A stretch of 32,000 nt of DNA from Candidatus Iainarchaeum sp. (GCA_028713935.1 JAQTNI010000008.1:1-32000); one strand, 5' to 3'; positions 226 through 10,296 are shown, numbered from the stretch's first letter. Notes: generated by a model from the sequence alone, not told the origin. Numbers and translations: made by a program.

Positions 226-597
226 TCAAGTTATATAGGCAAAAGATTGTGGGGGCATTAGGCCATATTTTTCCTTTAAACAAAGTGGTTGTTCATATTT
301 GAAAAATTTCCCGATTTTAATTGCGTAACCTCGTTCCTTGTTTAAAAAATATTTAAAAAAATTCTCTTCGGAAATTCCTGAATGGTATTTAGTTTTATTC
401 CAAAGTGATTCTATGTCATCAAAGAATATTTTTTTAATCTCAAATTCCCCTATTACTTTTTTTATTGGAGAAGAGGCGTATACAATAACTTGAGAAATAT
501 CCCGGTTTTTGAATATTAGTCGCCTATATTCGTACTGTTTTTCTCCTGAGAATATTTTTTCAGCGTATTCGGGCTTAATGGACAATAATACATTCAT
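226..597 (-). CDS. ASCH domain protein (stand-alone, PUA-like fold)
   Basis: In ORF 226..636, the N-terminus MNVLLSIKPEYAEKIFSGEKQYEYRR and the C-terminus ...LMPPQSFAYIT fit the pattern of stand-alone ASCH proteins. The preferred ATG is at 597 (cat at 595-597), with an alternative ATG at 636. The gene overlaps the stop of the upstream gene by 23 nt. Confidence 0.7.
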   Translation of the reverse strand: MNVLLSIKPEYAEKIFSGEKQYEYRRLIFKNRDISQVIVYASSPIKKVIGEFEIKKIFFDDIESLWNKTKYHSGISEENFFKYFLNKERGYAIKIGKFFKYEQPLCLKEKYGLMPPQSFAYIT

Positions 598-2086
598 TAG
601 TCTCTGTCTCCTTAAGAATTTTTTCAAAGGTTTCATCTGTGATTCTAGTGAATCCTCTAGGGGCAGAATGAACGTCTTTGATTATTCCTAAGGAAATCAA
701 TCTATTTAAATTTAGCCTTTTGGGGAAAGAATAAGCATACAGAAAATTTACAATGAAAGGTTTGTTGTACTGAGAATAGTTCCATTGTGCAGTAAGTTCC
801 TCATCCGTGAATACGCTTCTTTTTCTGCATGCTGAAATAAACACTTCACAGTCTTTGATGGACGTTTCAATATTTTCTACAATCCCAAGCGTACTAATGA
901 CCGCTTTATGATAACCACCGGTCCTATAAAAAATCAGAATGTCTCCCGATTTAAGGCCCCTCTCGATAGATCTTGAAATATACACTTTAGAAATCGCATT
1001 TCTAAATGGTGCATTTTCGGTAAAATCATCAGGCGACTCAGTTTTTAGAATAGAATCTGGAAATAAATTCGTGTGATAATCTCCATAAATAGGAACAATA
1101 AATTTATTCGCTTTCATTGACAGGAATGGATAAGTGGTTTTAGGCGAGTTTAATTCAGCATATTTTGCAAAACTGCGCACGTAAACGGCTTCTTCTCCAG
1201 ATGCAGATTTTTTAATTCCGTGGTATCTAAAACCAAAATCTTGAAGGAGATAGACTAACCTTTCTTGTTCTATCCTTTTGGGAAAGATTGTTACGTATAT
1301 CTCATTGACAGAAAATCTTTGGGCATTATCAAATATTATTTTCAAGAATCTTTCCCCCAATTTGTAGCCGTTTAGAGTGACTTTAAAAGAGCTAATTTTA
1401 AGTCTTTTTTTTCGCTGAAACACGGGCTCGATATCTTGATAGGGCTCATCTTCATTTTCAACTTTTAAATATAAAAACGCGACTATTTTGTCATCTGATT
1501 TACAAACATACGCAATTTCATTTGATTTTCCATTAAACCATTTTTCAAAACTCGCATAGTCTTCTTTAAAATTATCAAAAAAAGAGTCATTTACATCAAT
1601 GTTACCAAAATACTCTTTCTTTATGGGGAGTATCTTGTAATCAACTAATTGAGGATTTTCCGATAATATTTTTTCTAAAAAAGCATCAATTGTAAAAATT
1701 TTGGCTTCTAAACCAAGTTCCTTTCCTTTTTGATGTATTTTACGGTCTTCTGTAATTAATATATCAACTCGATTCGAAAAAAGTTCGTTAACAAGAACAG
1801 TATCATTAAGATCATTTTTACTAGAATCATATTTTTTACACAAGTTCTCCACTTTTGGATTCATTGGTGCTGAAGTTTTAAGCAAATTATAACTTTCTAG
1901 TTTAATTGCAAACGTCCGTAATTTTTTTTTGTCTTGTAACTTGCCTATTTCATCCAGAGTTATTTGATGGATGCACTTTACATAGTGCAGATTATCTATC
2001 CAATGGTATAGTTTCCCAATTTCTTCATGCAAAACAGTGTTTGATTCCCGATGGATGATAATATTAGTATCTAAAAGAACATTCAT
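575..2086 (-). CDS. PIN domain / GNAT-like / ASCH-like triple-domain fusion protein
   Basis: The ORF spans 575..2110. The N-terminus has PIN acidic motifs (MNVLLDTNIIIH, NDLNDTVLV, ILITEDRK). The middle has an acetyltransferase-like pattern (VAFLYLKVE...RLKISSFKVTLNGYKLGERFLKIIFDNA...IYVTIFP...LLQDFGF). The C-terminus resembles the neighbouring ASCH protein (IVPIYGDYHTNLFP; SGDILIFYRTGGYHKAVISTLGIVENI; ...SAPRGFTRIT). An ATG lies at 2086; an alternative GTG at 2110 overlaps the RFC stop. Confidence 0.6.
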   Translation of the reverse strand: MNVLLDTNIIIHRESNTVLHEEIGKLYHWIDNLHYVKCIHQITLDEIGKLQDKKKLRTFAIKLESYNLLKTSAPMNPKVENLCKKYDSSKNDLNDTVLVNELFSNRVDILITEDRKIHQKGKELGLEAKIFTIDAFLEKILSENPQLVDYKILPIKKEYFGNIDVNDSFFDNFKEDYASFEKWFNGKSNEIAYVCKSDDKIVAFLYLKVENEDEPYQDIEPVFQRKKRLKISSFKVTLNGYKLGERFLKIIFDNAQRFSVNEIYVTIFPKRIEQERLVYLLQDFGFRYHGIKKSASGEEAVYVRSFAKYAELNSPKTTYPFLSMKANKFIVPIYGDYHTNLFPDSILKTESPDDFTENAPFRNAISKVYISRSIERGLKSGDILIFYRTGGYHKAVISTLGIVENIETSIKDCEVFISACRKRSVFTDEELTAQWNYSQYNKPFIVNFLYAYSFPKRLNLNRLISLGIIKDVHSAPRGFTRITDETFEKILKETETNECIIVH

Positions 2087-2106
2087 TCGATTCAACCTAT
2101 TTTTTT

Positions 2107-4398
2107 TCACTTTTTTGCGTATTTCAAGAATTGCGCCAAAAGCGCTTCCAGTTGTATTCTTTCGTTTGCGCCTTCCACAATGCGAAAATCGTATTCGCCA
2201 ATTGTGTCAACAAGCGCTATCCTTGTTTTGCTCGGGATTTCCGTTTCAGGGGCATCGATTATTTCCCTGTAAAGCTGCAGCATTATGTCTTCTGCCGACA
2301 TTCCATGCTCAAACATCAGCTCGTCAAGCTTTTTCCTTGCATCCAGAAAGTTTCCGCCCAATGCAAGTTCAATCATCTGCTTTATTTCTTCAGGGCGGGC
2401 GCGGCTGCTGACGTCAAAAACAGTTTTTTCCAAAATGTTTTTTTCAAGGGAAGCGCATGCCTGCAGTATGTTCACTGCTTTTCTCATGTCTCCCATTGAA
2501 ACATAAATAATTGCGTCCAGTGCCTTTTGATCGATTTTCAGGGATTCTTTTTCCGCAATTTCTTTTAAGCGTTCCTGCATTTCTTTTGAGCTTAATGGTT
2601 TGTAACGGAAAACCACGCATCTGCTTTGTATGGGTTCAAGTATCCTGCTTGAATAATTGCAGCTTAAAATAAACCTGCATGTTCTTGTGAATTTTTCCAT
2701 TGTCCTGCGCAGAGCCTGCTGTGCGTCTGTGGTTAATGCGTCGCTTTCATCCAGAAAAATTATTTTAAAATTCGCGTTAAAGGCAAGTGTCCTTGCAAAA
2801 TCCTTTATTGTGCCCCTTACAACATCAATTCCCCTTGAATCGCTATTGTGTAAAAGCACTGGGGCAGTGCCTCCAAAAAACATTTCACTTTCTGGAACGG
2901 AAAAATCATAAACCCAGTCATTGAAAGGCTCTTTATTGATTGATTTTACTTCCACTCCAAACAAAGCTGTTTGAAGGGCTTTTTTGAGCTTTTCTAAGCG
3001 CACTTGTTTTTCAAATGGCAAGGTTTCTATGAAGCCTATTACTAATTTTTTTGACATTCTTTTGCTTTTTTTGGAGTAAAGAGCATGACGCATGAAATAG
3101 TTAAAATCGATTCCCTCGCGTTTGAATGCTTCTATAATTGGTTTTGTCGGAAAAAGGTCTGTTTTGAGGTTTGATGCGCTTGATTTTTTCCAGACAATTC
3201 TTAATTCTTTTTTGTACAATGAACAGTCAAGTCCGCATGTTCTTGCAAGCCAAGCAACATCAATCAAATTTTCTTTTGATACTGAACTGTACCGAACCAT
3301 TCGGCCCCATTCTCCGCTGGCATCGCCCATGTAGCCTTTTAAAAAATCTATTTTTAGCTGCAGGGGAAGAGAGAAAACAAAGCTGGGCACGCGTTTTGAG
3401 TGCGAAAATTTTCTTTCCTGCTCTGGCGAGTAAAAGTTTTCCCTAAAAAATTTTGCCAATTGAGTATTAAAGGCCTGCACCTGAATTGAGGATTTTTTGC
3501 TTCTGTCAAAGCCGGAGGCCCCTAATTTTGTTTTTGCTTGCACTCCAAATTTTTCTTGCAATATTTTCGCTGTTTTTTCAGCAATTTCTTTTTCTTGGGG
3601 GTAGCCCAAAGTAAAAATTACATAACCACTGGTTTTTCGCTTATTCATCAGGCCTGCACAGCCTTCTGCGAGATACAACCCAAATAGCCAGGCAATATCA
3701 GCATCTATTGTTATTTGTTTCAGGTTAACATAAACCCGAGGATTTTTTATGGTTCCACTTCTTAGTTCATTGGCGAGAATTGGCGCAAACTTTTCAAAAT
3801 CAATCTGTGTTTGTTTTTCCGATAGGCTGTCGCTGAAGGACAGCAAAATATCGCCTTTTTCAATTTTCCCGCATTCTTTTGCCGAAAAATTTCCAAAAGA
3901 ATCCAAAACTATTACTGAATGATTAAGGCTTGTTTCTACTTTTCCGCCATCAAATTTGATTTTTGCAATAGTTGAAATTTTGTGCCTTGAAATAAGTGAA
4001 ACTGGCATAAAGCAAATTTTTCCATCAAGGTTTACAGAAAGTGTTTCTAAACCAGTGGGAAGCGCATTTTTTTCTTGCTCATCTAAAAAATAATTTTGTG
4101 CAAGCTCCGAAAAATTTGTCCTGAAAATTTTTTCATTTCTCTTTACCAAGATCGGAGTTTCCGGAGTTACGCTTGCATTCAATTCCAAAAAATTCCTTTC
4201 AAAGTCTTTTCCAAAAAGCTCTTTTGCAAGCGCAACCGCTGCGCTTGTTTTTCCAACTCCGGCTGGCCCTGAAAAAAGCAGGTTTGGCACATTTGCCTGT
4301 TTTACATAGCTTTCCAGCCTTCGGATTATTTCTTTCTGGCCAATCACATCAGCCAGTTTTGCAGGCCTGTATTTTTCAATCCATGGCAATTCCGGCAT
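2107..4398 (-). CDS. rfcS: Replication factor C small subunit (clamp loader), intein-containing precursor
   Basis: Motifs seen are MPELPWIEKYRP, Walker A GPAGVGKT, LELNA...SDSRGIDVV, Walker B IIFLDESD, SRC (PIQSRC) and a C-terminal helical domain. The ATG is at 4398 (cat at 4396-4398). The ORF-track extension to 4539 has no RFC-like sequence. The exteins total 320 aa. Confidence 0.93.
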   Translation of the reverse strand: MPELPWIEKYRPAKLADVIGQKEIIRRLESYVKQANVPNLLFSGPAGVGKTSAAVALAKELFGKDFERNFLELNASVTPETPILVKRNEKIFRTNFSELAQNYFLDEQEKNALPTGLETLSVNLDGKICFMPVSLISRHKISTIAKIKFDGGKVETSLNHSVIVLDSFGNFSAKECGKIEKGDILLSFSDSLSEKQTQIDFEKFAPILANELRSGTIKNPRVYVNLKQITIDADIAWLFGLYLAEGCAGLMNKRKTSGYVIFTLGYPQEKEIAEKTAKILQEKFGVQAKTKLGASGFDRSKKSSIQVQAFNTQLAKFFRENFYSPEQERKFSHSKRVPSFVFSLPLQLKIDFLKGYMGDASGEWGRMVRYSSVSKENLIDVAWLARTCGLDCSLYKKELRIVWKKSSASNLKTDLFPTKPIIEAFKREGIDFNYFMRHALYSKKSKRMSKKLVIGFIETLPFEKQVRLEKLKKALQTALFGVEVKSINKEPFNDWVYDFSVPESEMFFGGTAPVLLHNSDSRGIDVVRGTIKDFARTLAFNANFKIIFLDESDALTTDAQQALRRTMEKFTRTCRFILSCNYSSRILEPIQSRCVVFRYKPLSSKEMQERLKEIAEKESLKIDQKALDAIIYVSMGDMRKAVNILQACASLEKNILEKTVFDVSSRARPEEIKQMIELALGGNFLDARKKLDELMFEHGMSAEDIMLQLYREIIDAPETEIPSKTRIALVDTIGEYDFRIVEGANERIQLEALLAQFLKYAKK
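2845..4173 (-). mobile_element. Intein (443 aa) with LAGLIDADG homing-endonuclease domain inside rfcS
   Basis: The insertion lies between LELNA and SDSRGIDVV. It begins SVTPETPILV (Ser1) and ends VYDFSVPESEMFFGGTAPVLLHN, followed by Ser+1. There is a block-B-like SLNH and two LAGLIDADG-type motifs (LFGLYLAEGCAG and DFLKGYMGDASG). Removing it restores the conserved LELNASDxRGIDVV. Confidence 0.88.
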
Positions 4399-4521
4399 AG
4401 CAAAAACCCTTTCAATACAAAAGTTTTCTTCAAAAACCAATAAAAACCGATGCAATAACAATTTTTTCCTGCCCCCAATTATTTTTAATTGATACGCTCC
4501 AATTGTTAATACGGTAAAAAT

Positions 4522-5061
4522 ATGGCAAACGAGCATCACCCCGAAAAAGGCTTTGACCCATTGAAAATGATTCTTGGAATCATATTTTTCATTATTGCCT
4601 ATGCAGTGCTTTTTTTTGTTGGCAGCGCAAATTCCCAGATTGGCACAGCAGTTGCAAATATTCCTGTCTTAAACCTTGTTTTGCCAATTCCGCCTGTCAT
4701 TGACCCGCCTGGAAATCTCTTTCCCCAGGTTTCAATGATGCACCTGTTATTGCCCGCAATTGGCTTTTTGATTATTTTTTTCGGCACAGATTGGATAGGC
4801 AGGTTCTTTGAAACAAAGCACAGCAAAACAATTGTTTTCCCAATAATTTTCATTATTTTCTGCCTTGGAGCTTTTTTTGTTTCGCTTTACTGGATGGCAA
4901 CAGAAACAGCAGTCCTGAATGGAGTCCCAATAAGCCAGATTGTGCCAGATTTCTGGTCTTATTTCTGGAGTGAACTCAGGGTATCCGCTTTTTATCTTTT
5001 CCTGCTTGGCGGCCTATTGGGCTGGATTTCAAAAATAGTGCTTGAAAAAATCAAGCTGTAA
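4522..5061 (+). CDS. Hypothetical integral membrane protein
   Basis: This 179-aa ORF starts with ATG and has several long hydrophobic segments (ILGIIFFIIAYAVLFFV, LLLPAIGFLIIFF, IVFPIIFIIFCLGAFFVSLYW, FYLFLLGGLLGWI). It is divergent from rfcS. Confidence 0.6.
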   Translation: MANEHHPEKGFDPLKMILGIIFFIIAYAVLFFVGSANSQIGTAVANIPVLNLVLPIPPVIDPPGNLFPQVSMMHLLLPAIGFLIIFFGTDWIGRFFETKHSKTIVFPIIFIIFCLGAFFVSLYWMATETAVLNGVPISQIVPDFWSYFWSELRVSAFYLFLLGGLLGWISKIVLEKIKL

Positions 5062-5085
5062 ATTCTTTTTTTTGCCTGGTTTTAT

Positions 5086-6342
5086 ATGCCTGAAAAGTTT
5101 TTTCTGGAGGGGTACGGTTGTTCCCTGAACAGGGCTGAAACAGAGCAGGCAGCAGGCCATCTTGAAGCCTCTGGGCTGAAACAGGTTTCAAGGCCTGAAG
5201 AAGCCGCAATTATCCTTGTCAATACCTGCGCAGTGAAAGAGCAGACAGAAACACGGATGATTTCCCGCATTAAAGCGCTTTTTGCAATTGCGGAAAAAAC
5301 AAATGCAAGGCTAATTGTTTTCGGATGCCTTCCAAAAATAAATTCCGAAAAAATTTCTGAAATTTCAAAAAAAATAATCCAGGCAGGCCCTGACCTTAAA
5401 GAATTGTCAAAAAAACTCGGGATAAAGGAAATTTCTTTTTCTCCTGAAGCCCCGCAGAAAAAATCAAGCAAATTCGTTTCAATTATCCCAATTGCGCGCG
5501 GCTGCCTTGGAAACTGCAGTTTTTGCGCCACAAAAAACGCGCGCGGAAAACTGGAAAGCCATTCCATTGAACAGATAAGGAAAAAATTTTTTGCCGAAAC
5601 AAAAAAGCCCTGTGAGGTCTGGCTTACTGCCCAGGACTGCGGCTGTTACGGCTTTGACATTGGCACAAGCCTTCCCTGCCTATTGAAGAAATTGCTGGAA
5701 AGCAAAAATGATTTCCGCATAAGGATCGGGATGATGAATCCCCAGAATGCCCTGCGCATTGCAGACAAGCTTTTGCCGCTTTTCAGGGACAAGCGCCTCT
5801 ACAGGTTTTTTCACATCCCTTTGCAATCCGGCTCCGATAAAATCCTGAAAAAAATGAACCGGCCTTATTCAAAAAAACAATTTTTTTTGCTGATAAAAAA
5901 AATCAGGAAAACAATTCCAGATGCCATGATTTCCACTGACATTATTGCCGGCTTTCCGGGAGAAACTGAAAAAAATTTTGCAGAAACAGTGAAAGCAGTG
6001 AAATTGCTCAAGGCGGACATAGTCAATGTTTCGCGTTTCGGTTCAAGGCCAGGCACTGCTGCGGAGAAAATGCCCTTGCAGCTTCACGGAAGGCACAAAA
6101 AAAATCGCAGCAGGATTCTTTCCGAATTGCAGAAAAAAATTTCACTGCAAAAAAATCTTTCCCTTTTGGGGACTGTCCAGGAAATTTTTGTTTCTGAAAA
6201 AGGGAAAAAAGGAAATTTTGTGGGAAGGCCTGTTTCTTACAGGCCTGTTGTGATTGAAAAAAATTTTCTTGGCAAAACCCTGAAAATAAGGGTTTCAAAT
6301 GTGTTTCCGCATTTTGTTTTTGGAAAAATCACAAAAGATTAG
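5086..6342 (+). CDS. MiaB-like radical SAM tRNA methylthiotransferase (archaeal MtaB/CDKAL1-type)
   Basis: The N-terminal UPF0004-like region reads FFLEGYGCSLNRAE...LVNTCAV. The radical SAM cluster motif is GCLGNCSFC. Also present are TDIIAGFPGETE and a C-terminal TRAM-like segment. Confidence 0.85.
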   Translation: MPEKFFLEGYGCSLNRAETEQAAGHLEASGLKQVSRPEEAAIILVNTCAVKEQTETRMISRIKALFAIAEKTNARLIVFGCLPKINSEKISEISKKIIQAGPDLKELSKKLGIKEISFSPEAPQKKSSKFVSIIPIARGCLGNCSFCATKNARGKLESHSIEQIRKKFFAETKKPCEVWLTAQDCGCYGFDIGTSLPCLLKKLLESKNDFRIRIGMMNPQNALRIADKLLPLFRDKRLYRFFHIPLQSGSDKILKKMNRPYSKKQFFLLIKKIRKTIPDAMISTDIIAGFPGETEKNFAETVKAVKLLKADIVNVSRFGSRPGTAAEKMPLQLHGRHKKNRSRILSELQKKISLQKNLSLLGTVQEIFVSEKGKKGNFVGRPVSYRPVVIEKNFLGKTLKIRVSNVFPHFVFGKITKD

Positions 6343-8579: not shown

Positions 8580-10190
8580 TTAGGGCTTGAAGCCTATCCA
8601 GGAAACATTTTCATCCATCAGCCTGTTGAAGCCGCTTTTGTTTTTTGCAAAAGCCCTGAAAAAAATGCTTTTCTGCAATCCAAGCTTCAAAAGCATTTTC
8701 TGCTCATCGCTTTTTGTTTCAAGCTTAAGCTTCCTGTTCTGCGCTTCAAACCTTTTTATTGCGGTTGGATTTTCAAGTTCCGCAATAATCCATTCTTCCC
8801 CAAGTGCTTTCCTGGTTTTTTCAATTGTTTTGCAGCACAAATCAATATTTTTCTTTCTGGAAGAGGATTGCAAGGAATGCCTGCATGCCTGCAGCAATGA
8901 ATGCAGACCAAGCACTGGCTGCATTTTTTCAATTTCAATCCCCGCATTTTTTAAATAGGCTCTTTTTGCAAGTTCGCTTTTTTTAAGTTCAGCCAATTGC
9001 TTTGCTTTTTCAGCCAAAAAAACTGTTTTTTCCAAAAATTCTTCAGGAGAATTCGGCACAGCCTGTTTCAGCAGGTTCAATGCAATAAAAGAAAGAATCC
9101 CGTTTTTTGCGGGAATCCCATTAAAAGCCTGGAAATAATTTTTTTTGCAGTTCAGGAAACCTGCTTTTTTGCAGAGCTTTTTGTTTACAAGGCCAATCTT
9201 GTATTTTGTGTCAACCAAAAAAACAGGCTTCATGCCAGAATTGCCCGCAACTGTTTTTTCAAGAAATTTGTTTGCAAGCACAACAAGCGTTTCATTGTCA
9301 AGCTCAAATTCAGTGTTTTCAGGCACAAAAAGATTCAGCCCAATATTCCCCAAAGGCTTTTTTGTTGAAGCGCATGCAAGAGCCCCTGCGAAAAAGTCTG
9401 CAGCCTCTTCCGCCTGGCTTTTTTCAATAAGAGAGGCAATTGCAATGTTTGCTTCCGCAATATTAATCCCCCAGGAAAAAAATTTTTGCAGCTTGTTTTT
9501 CTGCTTTACGCATTCAAAAATTGTTTTTTTCATGCCAGCGCGCTTTTCGGCTTTTACTGTAAAAGCAGAGGGCTTTGTGCTGAAATCCCCTATGTTTGCA
9601 ATGAAAATGTCAGAAGAAAAATGCAAATCGCTTAATTCTTTTGGAATTACTTTCAAAAGATTGTATTCAGTGAGAATAGCCCTGTTTGAATAGGGCTGCC
9701 TTGAAATTTTTTGTTCAACTTCAAAAACAGGCAATCCAACTCTTGCATACTCATTTCTTATTGTTTCATGGCCGTATTCAAGCAGCTTTACATTTACAAG
9801 CTCCCTTATGAGCGCAGTTGTAAGATAGGAAATTTGCAGGCCATTGATTTTTTCCTCGACTTCCTTCCCGATTTTTTCCGAGACCCCTCTTGTGATTTTT
9901 GTTTCTTTCAGGAGGGATTTTATGATATTGCCCCTGTCAAAGGCAGTTATTTCCAGATTAGAGTTTCTCACTGTCATTCTCTGGAAAGAAGCAAAAATAT
10001 TCGCGGCTTTAGGGTCAAGTTCCCTCAGCACTTCCAATGCCCTGAGGCGCATTTTTTCAGGCTCTTTTGTTTCCATTGAATTTAATTCTTTTATGATTCT
10101 CACAATGCACCATTTGCTAGCATTTGCTTCCTCGCATTCCTTTGCAATTTTTTCAATTGCCTCTTCAATCGGTTCCTGTTCCTGAGCCAT
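8580..10190 (-). CDS. ATP-cone protein, NrdD-like (anaerobic ribonucleotide reductase N-terminal homolog) lacking a glycyl-radical C-terminus
   Basis: An ATP-cone pattern is present (FDRGNIIKSLLKETKITRGVSEKIGKEVEEKI...LIRELVNVKLLEYGH...YARVG), preceded by a partial ATP-cone-like end (ALEVLRELDPKAANIFASFQRM). The segment LSDLHFSSDIFIANIGDF resembles the NrdD aH..G.ihiHDl region. No Zn-ribbon CxxC or glycyl-radical motif is visible at the C-terminus. Confidence 0.5.
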   Translation of the reverse strand: MAQEQEPIEEAIEKIAKECEEANASKWCIVRIIKELNSMETKEPEKMRLRALEVLRELDPKAANIFASFQRMTVRNSNLEITAFDRGNIIKSLLKETKITRGVSEKIGKEVEEKINGLQISYLTTALIRELVNVKLLEYGHETIRNEYARVGLPVFEVEQKISRQPYSNRAILTEYNLLKVIPKELSDLHFSSDIFIANIGDFSTKPSAFTVKAEKRAGMKKTIFECVKQKNKLQKFFSWGINIAEANIAIASLIEKSQAEEAADFFAGALACASTKKPLGNIGLNLFVPENTEFELDNETLVVLANKFLEKTVAGNSGMKPVFLVDTKYKIGLVNKKLCKKAGFLNCKKNYFQAFNGIPAKNGILSFIALNLLKQAVPNSPEEFLEKTVFLAEKAKQLAELKKSELAKRAYLKNAGIEIEKMQPVLGLHSLLQACRHSLQSSSRKKNIDLCCKTIEKTRKALGEEWIIAELENPTAIKRFEAQNRKLKLETKSDEQKMLLKLGLQKSIFFRAFAKNKSGFNRLMDENVSWIGFKP

Positions 10191-10296
10191 TTAACAAGAA
10201 TTGTTCAGAAACCAATAAAACAAAAGAGGGTTCTTTGAAAAGCAAACTTTTTAATATGTTTTTCTTAAGAATAATTACTGCGGGTTTGGGGCTATT

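Follow-up and report, generated by a model that had tools for sequence, protein, structure and literature searches.

Gene content of the locus

The stretch of DNA analysed here, which we call the window, comprises 32,000 nucleotides from Candidatus Iainarchaeum sp. (GCA_028713935.1 JAQTNI010000008.1:1-32000), and our subject is a pair of overlapping genes near its beginning that encode a large protein with PIN, GNAT-like and EVE-like domains and a small ASCH protein. An earlier note, made from the sequence alone, had singled out positions 226-2110 as a candidate toxin or defence module linked to RNA modification. Two minus-strand open reading frames (ORFs) are confirmed there, a large one at 575..2110 that begins with GTG and a small one at 226..597. 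On its upstream side the module adjoins the gene for the small subunit of replication factor C (RFC; 2107..4539), which lies on the same strand.

The likely start of the large gene is the ATG at 2086, with the in-frame GTG at 2110 as an alternative that would give a 511-residue product. We prefer the ATG because it lies 20 nt past the RFC stop codon, because a sequence resembling a ribosome-binding site (AGGTTGA) precedes it, and because the resulting protein of 503 amino acids has the same length as its homologues. On this assignment the large gene occupies 575..2086, and the AGGTTGA site falls in the 20-nt spacer between the RFC stop codon and the start of the module (2087..2106, minus strand), where the GC content changes. 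The small gene (226..597, minus strand) encodes 123 amino acids, and its product has 100% identity to a database protein from Candidatus ainarchaeum sp. annotated as ASCH domain-containing. Two other contigs with an identical ASCH protein span 0.9-1.3 kb and add no wider gene context.

The two genes share 23 nt (575..597, minus strand; ATGAATGTATTATTGTCCATTAA), within which the end and stop codon of the large gene coincide with the start of the ASCH gene, the same bases specifying a conserved strand at the C-terminus of the large protein and the first beta-strand of the small one. An overlap of 23 nt with a near-identical sequence is present in 47 of the 61 related loci that could be resolved, and the GevT/GevA pair of Escherichia phage PhiR47_2, discussed below, likewise overlaps by 23 nt. 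The overlap suggests that the two genes are translationally coupled, as the earlier note had supposed from the overlap in this one locus.

Both proteins match profiles of a catalogued defence candidate. The large protein matches PADLOC PDC-M11A (PDLC04422) with an E value of 2.7e-209, residues 9-510 of the 511-residue GTG-start ORF aligning to positions 1-500 of the 501 in the profile, and the small protein matches PDC-M11B (PDLC04425) over its full length with an E value of 1.4e-50. Going by these profile matches, the locus is a member of a known family, a copy of the two-gene (PIN)-GNAT-EVE plus ASCH module that PADLOC lists as candidate PDC-M11. Its large protein resembles GevT with an extra N-terminal PIN domain; its small protein is GevA-like and is a predicted antitoxin or partner.

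Domains of the large protein

The three-part architecture first read from the sequence is borne out by Pfam matches of the family to PIN, by a GNAT fold in the middle of the protein and by a PUA-like domain at its C-terminus. A model of the large protein built with AlphaFold2 from 41 homologues has a predicted local distance difference test score (pLDDT) of 82.

The N-terminal domain (residues 1-147; 1646..2086, minus strand) is a VapC-like PIN nuclease domain that contains the motifs LLDTN, NDLNDT and ITEDRK. The acidic tetrad of D6, E46, D95 and D114 is invariant in the 41 homologues, and the acidic motifs recognised by eye are intact. Taken by itself the PIN domain of the window falls under the Pfam cut-off (19.9 bits against 27). 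Among the N-terminal domains of the family, however, all 16 examined match PIN_3 (best E value 1.8e-8), 14 of the 16 match PIN_12 and 12 of the 16 match PIN_4; TIGR00305 is matched with an E value of 5e-4. A search of PDB sequences with the PIN profile returned no match.

For the middle domain (residues about 152-318; 1133..1633, minus strand), Foldseek retrieves the acetyltransferases Naa60, Naa50, Ard1 and RimI at probability 1.0 and with template modelling (TM) scores of about 0.6, in keeping with the acetyltransferase-like middle that had been proposed. The match to Pfam Acetyltransf_4 is weak (E value 0.002, below the cut-off), and the GNAT profile yields weak matches only among PDB sequences (E values above 0.1). 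The acetyl-CoA-binding motif A (R/Q-x-x-G-x-G/A) is degenerate: the beta4-alpha3 loop reads N239-G-Y-K-L-G244-E-R, with lysine in the fourth position instead of glycine. Within this loop G240, G244 and R246 are invariant, phage GevT included, and E245 is nearly so, being replaced by glutamine in GevT. The loss of motif A was already pointed out by Matelska et al. 2017 (PMC5499597), who judged the domain probably inactive. With motif A missing, activity of the GNAT domain as a "writer" of acetyl groups is therefore uncertain.

The C-terminal domain (residues about 320-503; 578..1129, minus strand) belongs to the PUA superfamily, carries a GD..FYRTGG motif and is EVE-like by sequence. In 12 of 12 family members this domain gives a weak match to Pfam EVE (PF01878), with E values of 0.001-0.05 that lie below the 23-bit cut-off, and in none of the 12 does it match ASCH; Bell et al. 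2020 (PMC7641849) name it EVE. The best PUA-like PDB match of the whole large-protein model is ZmASCH 5y6c (TM 0.72, Foldseek). The PUA-like fold implied by the earlier label of ASCH stands, and by sequence the domain leans weakly to EVE. A by-eye alignment of this domain to the small protein fared less well: comparison of the two family profiles with hhalign gives an E value of 0.2 over 15 columns, which does not support sequence homology, and the alignment therefore reflects a common fold and a common Tyr-containing strand. As far as the structural models go, the relationship of this domain to the small ASCH protein is one of fold only. PDB sequence matches to the whole large protein and to the C-terminal profile consisted of cyanovirin and EF-hand entries only, and were discarded as spurious.

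The small ASCH protein

The small protein passes the cut-off of Pfam ASCH (PF04266; 22.8 bits against 21.2), and its AlphaFold2 model has a pLDDT of 95.7. The closest structural match is ZmASCH of Zymomonas mobilis, with a TM of 0.88 by Foldseek, 30% identity and an E value of 1.7e-11 against the PDB. The solo ASCH gene seen downstream of the large gene is thereby confirmed. Its family is well conserved, with a mean column identity of 64% among 33 homologues. In the octapeptide characteristic of ASCH domains, G18-E-K20-Q-Y-E23-Y-R25, the glycine, lysine, glutamate and arginine are invariant in these homologues (GxKxxExR), as are Y40 and the segment P115-P-Q-S118-F. The glutamate of the octapeptide places the small protein in the GKER group.

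Y40 and S118 are the counterparts of Y47 and S128 of ZmASCH, in which Y47 and S128 mutants bind less nucleic acid and Y47F also cleaves less RNA (PMC5615036). The invariance of the counterparts of the ZmASCH cleft residues Y47, Q127 and S128 suggests that the small protein has a ligand-binding site or is an enzyme, and that it is not a simple plug. According to a 2026 preprint, 19 ASCH proteins, including the GKER group and ZmASCH, strip N4-acetylcytidine (ac4C) from tRNA in vitro, the lysine and glutamate of the octapeptide being essential. YqfB is only a distant structural match of the small protein (E value 2e-3, TM about 0.6), and the small protein has glutamate where the GK[T/S]R octapeptide has its water-activating threonine.

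Both proteins of the module open with MNVLL (2086-2072 and 597-583, minus strand; the family consensus is MKVLL), which forms the first beta-strand in each. This common start is probably a coincidence.

Distribution and gene context

A database clustered at 90% contains more than 5,307 homologues of the large protein, the best of them 60-67% identical, and clustering at 50% identity leaves 1,796 groups that match it with an E value of 1e-3 or better. A relative is encoded at no fewer than 585 loci of species-representative genomes; our survey covers the best 80 of these, with flanks sampled to two genes on each side. Their large proteins are 54-65% identical to that of the window. They come from archaea (Bathyarchaeia, Methanoperedens, Thermoplasmata, Altiarchaeota, Nanoarchaeota and others) as well as bacteria (Planctomycetota, Chloroflexota, Bacteroidota, Bacillota, Acidobacteriota and others). 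In 76 of the 80 loci the large gene is followed at once by an ASCH gene of the same orientation, and contig ends explain two of the four exceptions, so the PIN-GNAT fusion and a downstream ASCH gene do co-occur in other genomes. The distance matrices of the large and small proteins are correlated as well (Mantel r 0.54, against a permutation maximum of 0.19), which points to co-divergence of the two.

The association is also seen in other arrangements. One protein of 632 amino acids (P0248) is a single PIN-GNAT-EVE-ASCH chain whose ASCH part is 43% identical to the small protein of the window. P0264, P0270 and about ten others, of 612-635 amino acids, have the order ASCH-PIN-GNAT-EVE, with an N-terminal ASCH domain like Pyrococcus PH0355 (PDB 2Z0T). 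A ZmASCH-like gene, in some cases annotated as helix-turn-helix (HTH), lies upstream of the large gene on alpha-proteobacterial plasmids, where the order is reversed and the pairing kept. Family members are found on plasmids and on phages, and a copy on a haloarchaeal plasmid adjoins a type I-B CRISPR-Cas locus.

The flanks are otherwise unrelated between the 80 loci. The sole recurrent neighbour is an AAA_17/AAA_18 P-loop protein of about 178 amino acids, for which there is no PADLOC model. It occurs in 14 of the 80 loci, usually directly upstream (L022, L038, L042, L047-L049, L052, L058, L059, L066, L067 and L077) and otherwise directly downstream (L053 and L062); at L047 and L049 the AAA_17 gene is present and no ASCH gene was detected. 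Genes for type I restriction-modification (RM), HNH, MADS, PbeA and PD-T4-6 and for type II methyltransferases and integrases are scattered among the flanks, the remaining neighbours being housekeeping genes. A strong defence-island context was considered and set aside, as RM or other defence genes lie near a minority of the 80 loci only. Taken together, the pairing, the co-divergence, the fusions, the variable flanks and the plasmid and phage copies indicate a self-contained, mobile and functionally obligate pair.

The composition of the window copy agrees with such mobility. The module has a GC content of 32.0%, compared with 40.2 +/- 1.3% in equal-sized pieces elsewhere in the window (z = -6.5), and a GC content at third codon positions (GC3) of 0.27, compared with 0.39-0.47 in the adjacent genes. 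The low values of both indicate recent horizontal acquisition, and on this compositional evidence we regard the copy in the window as horizontally acquired and, by its sequence, complete.

Some further observations were made at individual loci. An HNH_5 endonuclease and an unknown protein of 361 amino acids recur beside the module (L040 and L045, both from Hymenobacter, and L026, L035, L038, L048, L054 and L057); at L040 and L045 the gene for the 361-residue protein sits between the large and ASCH genes, in a gap of 958 nt. The two may form another embedded defence candidate. In a metagenome-assembled genome of Methanobacteriota (L005), a second ASCH gene (9760-10221) lies about 1.8 kb downstream of the first.

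A homologous pair in lambdoid phages

When phage genomes were searched with tblastn, a homologous pair without a PIN domain came up in lambdoid phages of E. coli. In Escherichia phage PhiR47_2 (PV340567.1) the two genes carry the annotations "GevT toxin" and "GevA antitoxin". GevT shares 38% identity with residues 155-503 of the large protein (E value 9e-64) and GevA 48% with the small protein (E value 7e-42), and the gene order is that of the window pair, as is the length of the overlap. The phage pair differs in that GevT lacks the PIN domain, in that it is prophage-borne next to cI, and in that its toxin and antitoxin roles are known from the record annotation alone. In PhiR47_2 (3980-5408; L083 in our set) the pair lies directly downstream of cI and before kil/gam/bet. 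This slot is the one that holds rexAB in phage lambda, a position that would fit an exclusion function expressed in the lysogen. Of 5,426 complete E. coli genomes, 275 (about 5%) carry the pair with an identity of at least 99%. No paper on GevT/GevA was found in our literature search.

A separate PIN-GNAT homologue is encoded by Methanothermobacter phage psiM100 (8233-9534), with 30% identity over residues 1-430, in the "inserted fragment IFa, ORFD" of that archaeal provirus.

Relation to described systems

The architecture had not been recognised by the earlier note as a described system. It is in fact on record as PADLOC PDC-M11 and in three computational papers (2013, 2017 and 2020), and a homologous phage pair without PIN is annotated GevT/GevA. 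The PDCs are a set of 145 explicitly untested candidates that were identified inside known defence systems (Payne et al., bioRxiv 10.1101/2024.01.29.577857). With PDC-M11 the window pair shares a full-length match of both proteins and the same two-gene order, and nothing structural differs; what sets the window copy apart is that no recognisable defence system surrounds it.

Matelska et al. 2017 (PMC5499597) described the PIN_15 and PIN_17 "PIN-GNAT-PUA" genes as expanded toxin-antitoxin operons, and Bell et al. 2020 (PMC7641849) reported that in (PIN)-GNAT-EVE operons an ASCH gene is nearly always present and an AAA_17 ATPase gene frequently so. Both cite an earlier proposal that these proteins acetylate DNA bases or RNA. 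The window pair resembles the operons of these papers in the order of its PIN, GNAT-like and PUA-like (EVE) domains, in the second PUA-like protein, ASCH, encoded alongside, in the degenerate motif A, and in the sporadic spread through bacteria and archaea. It differs in having no AAA_17 gene, no HTH fused to its ASCH protein and no adjacent type I RM system; indeed, no RM genes of any type lie within two genes on either side of it.

ZmASCH itself (PDB 5GUQ and 5GUS; Kim et al. 2017, PMC5615036) has its Tyr47, Ser128 and GKER octapeptide conserved in the small protein. It was studied in isolation, however, and the Mg-dependent cleavage of single-stranded RNA and the in-vitro removal of ac4C ascribed to it have not been linked to a partner protein.

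Among toxin-antitoxin systems, TacT/TacA, AtaT/AtaR, ItaT and VapBC are comparable in being two-gene units in which a GNAT or PIN toxin acting on tRNA is accompanied by a small neutralising protein. The module departs from them in fusing both toxin-type domains with a PUA-like reader, in having as its partner a conserved ASCH fold instead of a ribbon-helix-helix, AbrB or HTH protein, in its degenerate motif A, and in the downstream position of its small gene. The layout is thus not that of a classical type II toxin-antitoxin system: the small gene follows the large one, its product has no HTH, and that product is highly conserved.

Possible function of the module

We lean towards the view that the window pair, by its profile matches a copy of the (PIN)-GNAT-EVE plus ASCH module, works as a toxin-antitoxin or anti-virus system, in the following way. 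The large protein would be the toxic effector. Its EVE-like PUA domain would dock it on nucleic acid, probably RNA such as a tRNA with a particular base or modification; the PIN domain would cut the docked RNA, and the GNAT-like domain might bind or acylate that RNA. The small ASCH protein, co-translated by way of the 23-nt overlap, would keep the effector harmless in uninfected cells, either by binding the effector or its substrate or by enzymatic removal of an N-acetyl group, as related ASCH proteins do with ac4C in tRNA. Infection by a virus, or loss of the module, could then tip the balance to toxicity, resulting in abortive infection or addiction. The residues of catalytic type in the PIN and ASCH domains are intact, to judge from the alignments of their homologues. 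The substrate, the trigger and any acetylation chemistry are matters that we infer; RNA, or tRNA in particular, is the likeliest target because PIN domains are RNases and because GNAT toxins act on aminoacyl-tRNA.

This view agrees with the published predictions (PMC5499597, PMC7641849), with the listing as PDC-M11 and with the GevT/GevA annotation, and in that respect the earlier suggestion of a toxin-antitoxin-like or antiviral function holds up; the expected link to defence islands is modest in the 80-locus sample. A number of points count against it. Recognisable defence genes occur within two genes on either side in only about 10-15 of the 80 loci, and many copies, that of the window included, lie among housekeeping genes. 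The strong conservation of the small protein, as measured on its aligned homologues, is unlike that of typical labile type II antitoxins, and the single-chain fusions fit a constitutive subunit equally well as an antitoxin. The GNAT domain, to go by its loop sequence, is without a canonical motif A and is perhaps catalytically dead, while the 2026 preprint found no significant removal of ac4C by ZmASCH in vivo. The PADLOC listing confers the status of an untested candidate only, the assigned roles of toxin and antitoxin come from one GenBank annotation together with published predictions, and no experiment on a PIN-containing member was found in the literature searched.

Much the same evidence can be read as a system of reversible nucleic-acid acetylation with a logic like that of DarT/DarG, which is possible but doubtful. 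In such a system the GNAT domain would acetylate an exocyclic amine (cytosine N4, for example) in tRNA or DNA, the EVE domain would target it, the ASCH protein would deacetylate, and the PIN domain would destroy marked or unmarked RNA. The GNAT fold is present, the GKER octapeptide of the small protein has its lysine and glutamate invariant, the ac4C of tRNA is removed in vitro by other GKER-type ASCH proteins, and YqfB acts as an ac4C amidohydrolase; the invariant residues that match the cleft of ZmASCH (Y47, Q127, S128) would suit an eraser, and acetylation of DNA bases or RNA is what was first proposed in print, according to PMC5499597 and PMC7641849. The possibility, raised at the outset, that an ASCH module could be an eraser has gained in substance through the 2026 preprint. 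On the writer side, the N-G-Y-K-L-G loop replaces the canonical motif A and the domain was deemed probably inactive (PMC5499597). Moreover, YqfB is a distant match, the closest characterised relative, ZmASCH, shows no significant activity in vivo, and no acetylated substrate is known. That the GNAT-like domain, its odd motif A notwithstanding, writes N-acetyl groups such as ac4C on tRNA or on invading nucleic acid, with EVE selecting the target, ASCH erasing the mark and PIN cutting marked or unmarked RNA, we consider unlikely. If this is true, a toxin-antitoxin or immune system would for the first time be based on the writing and erasing of base acetylation, and the ASCH "ac4C erasers" would gain a natural cognate writer.

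Two readings that dispense with an autonomous toxin-antitoxin pair are less likely than that of an effector neutralised by its ASCH partner. It is improbable that the module is an accessory specificity or reader unit for RM and other DNA-targeting defences, its EVE and ASCH domains reading modified bases in invading DNA and recruiting or regulating neighbouring restriction enzymes. PIN-GNAT-EVE is often associated with type I RM according to PMC7641849, which also reports a fusion of ASCH to HsdS, and type I methyltransferase, specificity or restriction genes lie near some of the 80 loci; CRISPR-Cas adjoins the haloarchaeal plasmid copy, and the ASCH domain of human TRIP4 binds double-stranded DNA (PDB 8yfj and 9kyl). 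Yet RM genes are missing from the sampled flanks of the window pair and of the majority of the 80 loci, the pair moves as a self-contained unit and is on its own where it occupies the immunity region of lambdoid prophages, and PIN domains are typically RNases. A conserved housekeeping operon for RNA processing or modification, co-transcribed with RFC, is very improbable indeed. Such an operon would account for the start of the module 20 nt past the RFC gene on the same strand and for the housekeeping neighbours, and PUA-like domains are common in RNA-modification enzymes. It does not sit well with a GC content and GC3 strongly unlike those of the host, with a patchy spread over both prokaryotic domains at 55-65% identity, with flanks that differ between loci, or with the presence of the family on phages and plasmids.

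The locus in the window is ordinary, in that it is one more copy of a widespread module in the metagenome-assembled genome of a DPANN archaeon. The family as a whole deserves more attention: it is large, it occurs in both prokaryotic domains at unusually high identity, and it is a catalogued defence candidate for which no published mechanism was found in the literature searched. The report of ac4C erasure by ASCH proteins, together with the obligate pairing and the fusions, leads to a concrete and plausible hypothesis, that of a GNAT-like and ASCH writer/eraser pair coupled to an RNase, and makes the family a good experimental target.

Surroundings of the module in the window

The RFC gene upstream of the module (2107-4539) is split by an intein that contains a LAGLIDADG homing-endonuclease domain (Pfam Intein_splicing and LAGLIDADG_3). 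The other neighbours are housekeeping genes, including those for a MiaB-like radical-SAM enzyme, an Lrp/AsnC regulator and a topoisomerase; the AAA_17 gene is absent. We considered whether short direct repeats at both ends of the module might be insertion scars, but positions 1-230 and the 3' end of the RFC gene have no real similarity, and we attribute the repeats to chance. No tRNA genes that might have served as integration targets are present in the window.

On the far side of the module, a putative gene begins at position 9 on the minus strand, with an ATG preceded by GGAGGTG, and runs off the edge of the window. In the 216-nt spacer past the ASCH gene, a 14-nt sequence is repeated in tandem (GAGAAAATTCGAGT / GAAAAAATTCGAGT) at 112-144.

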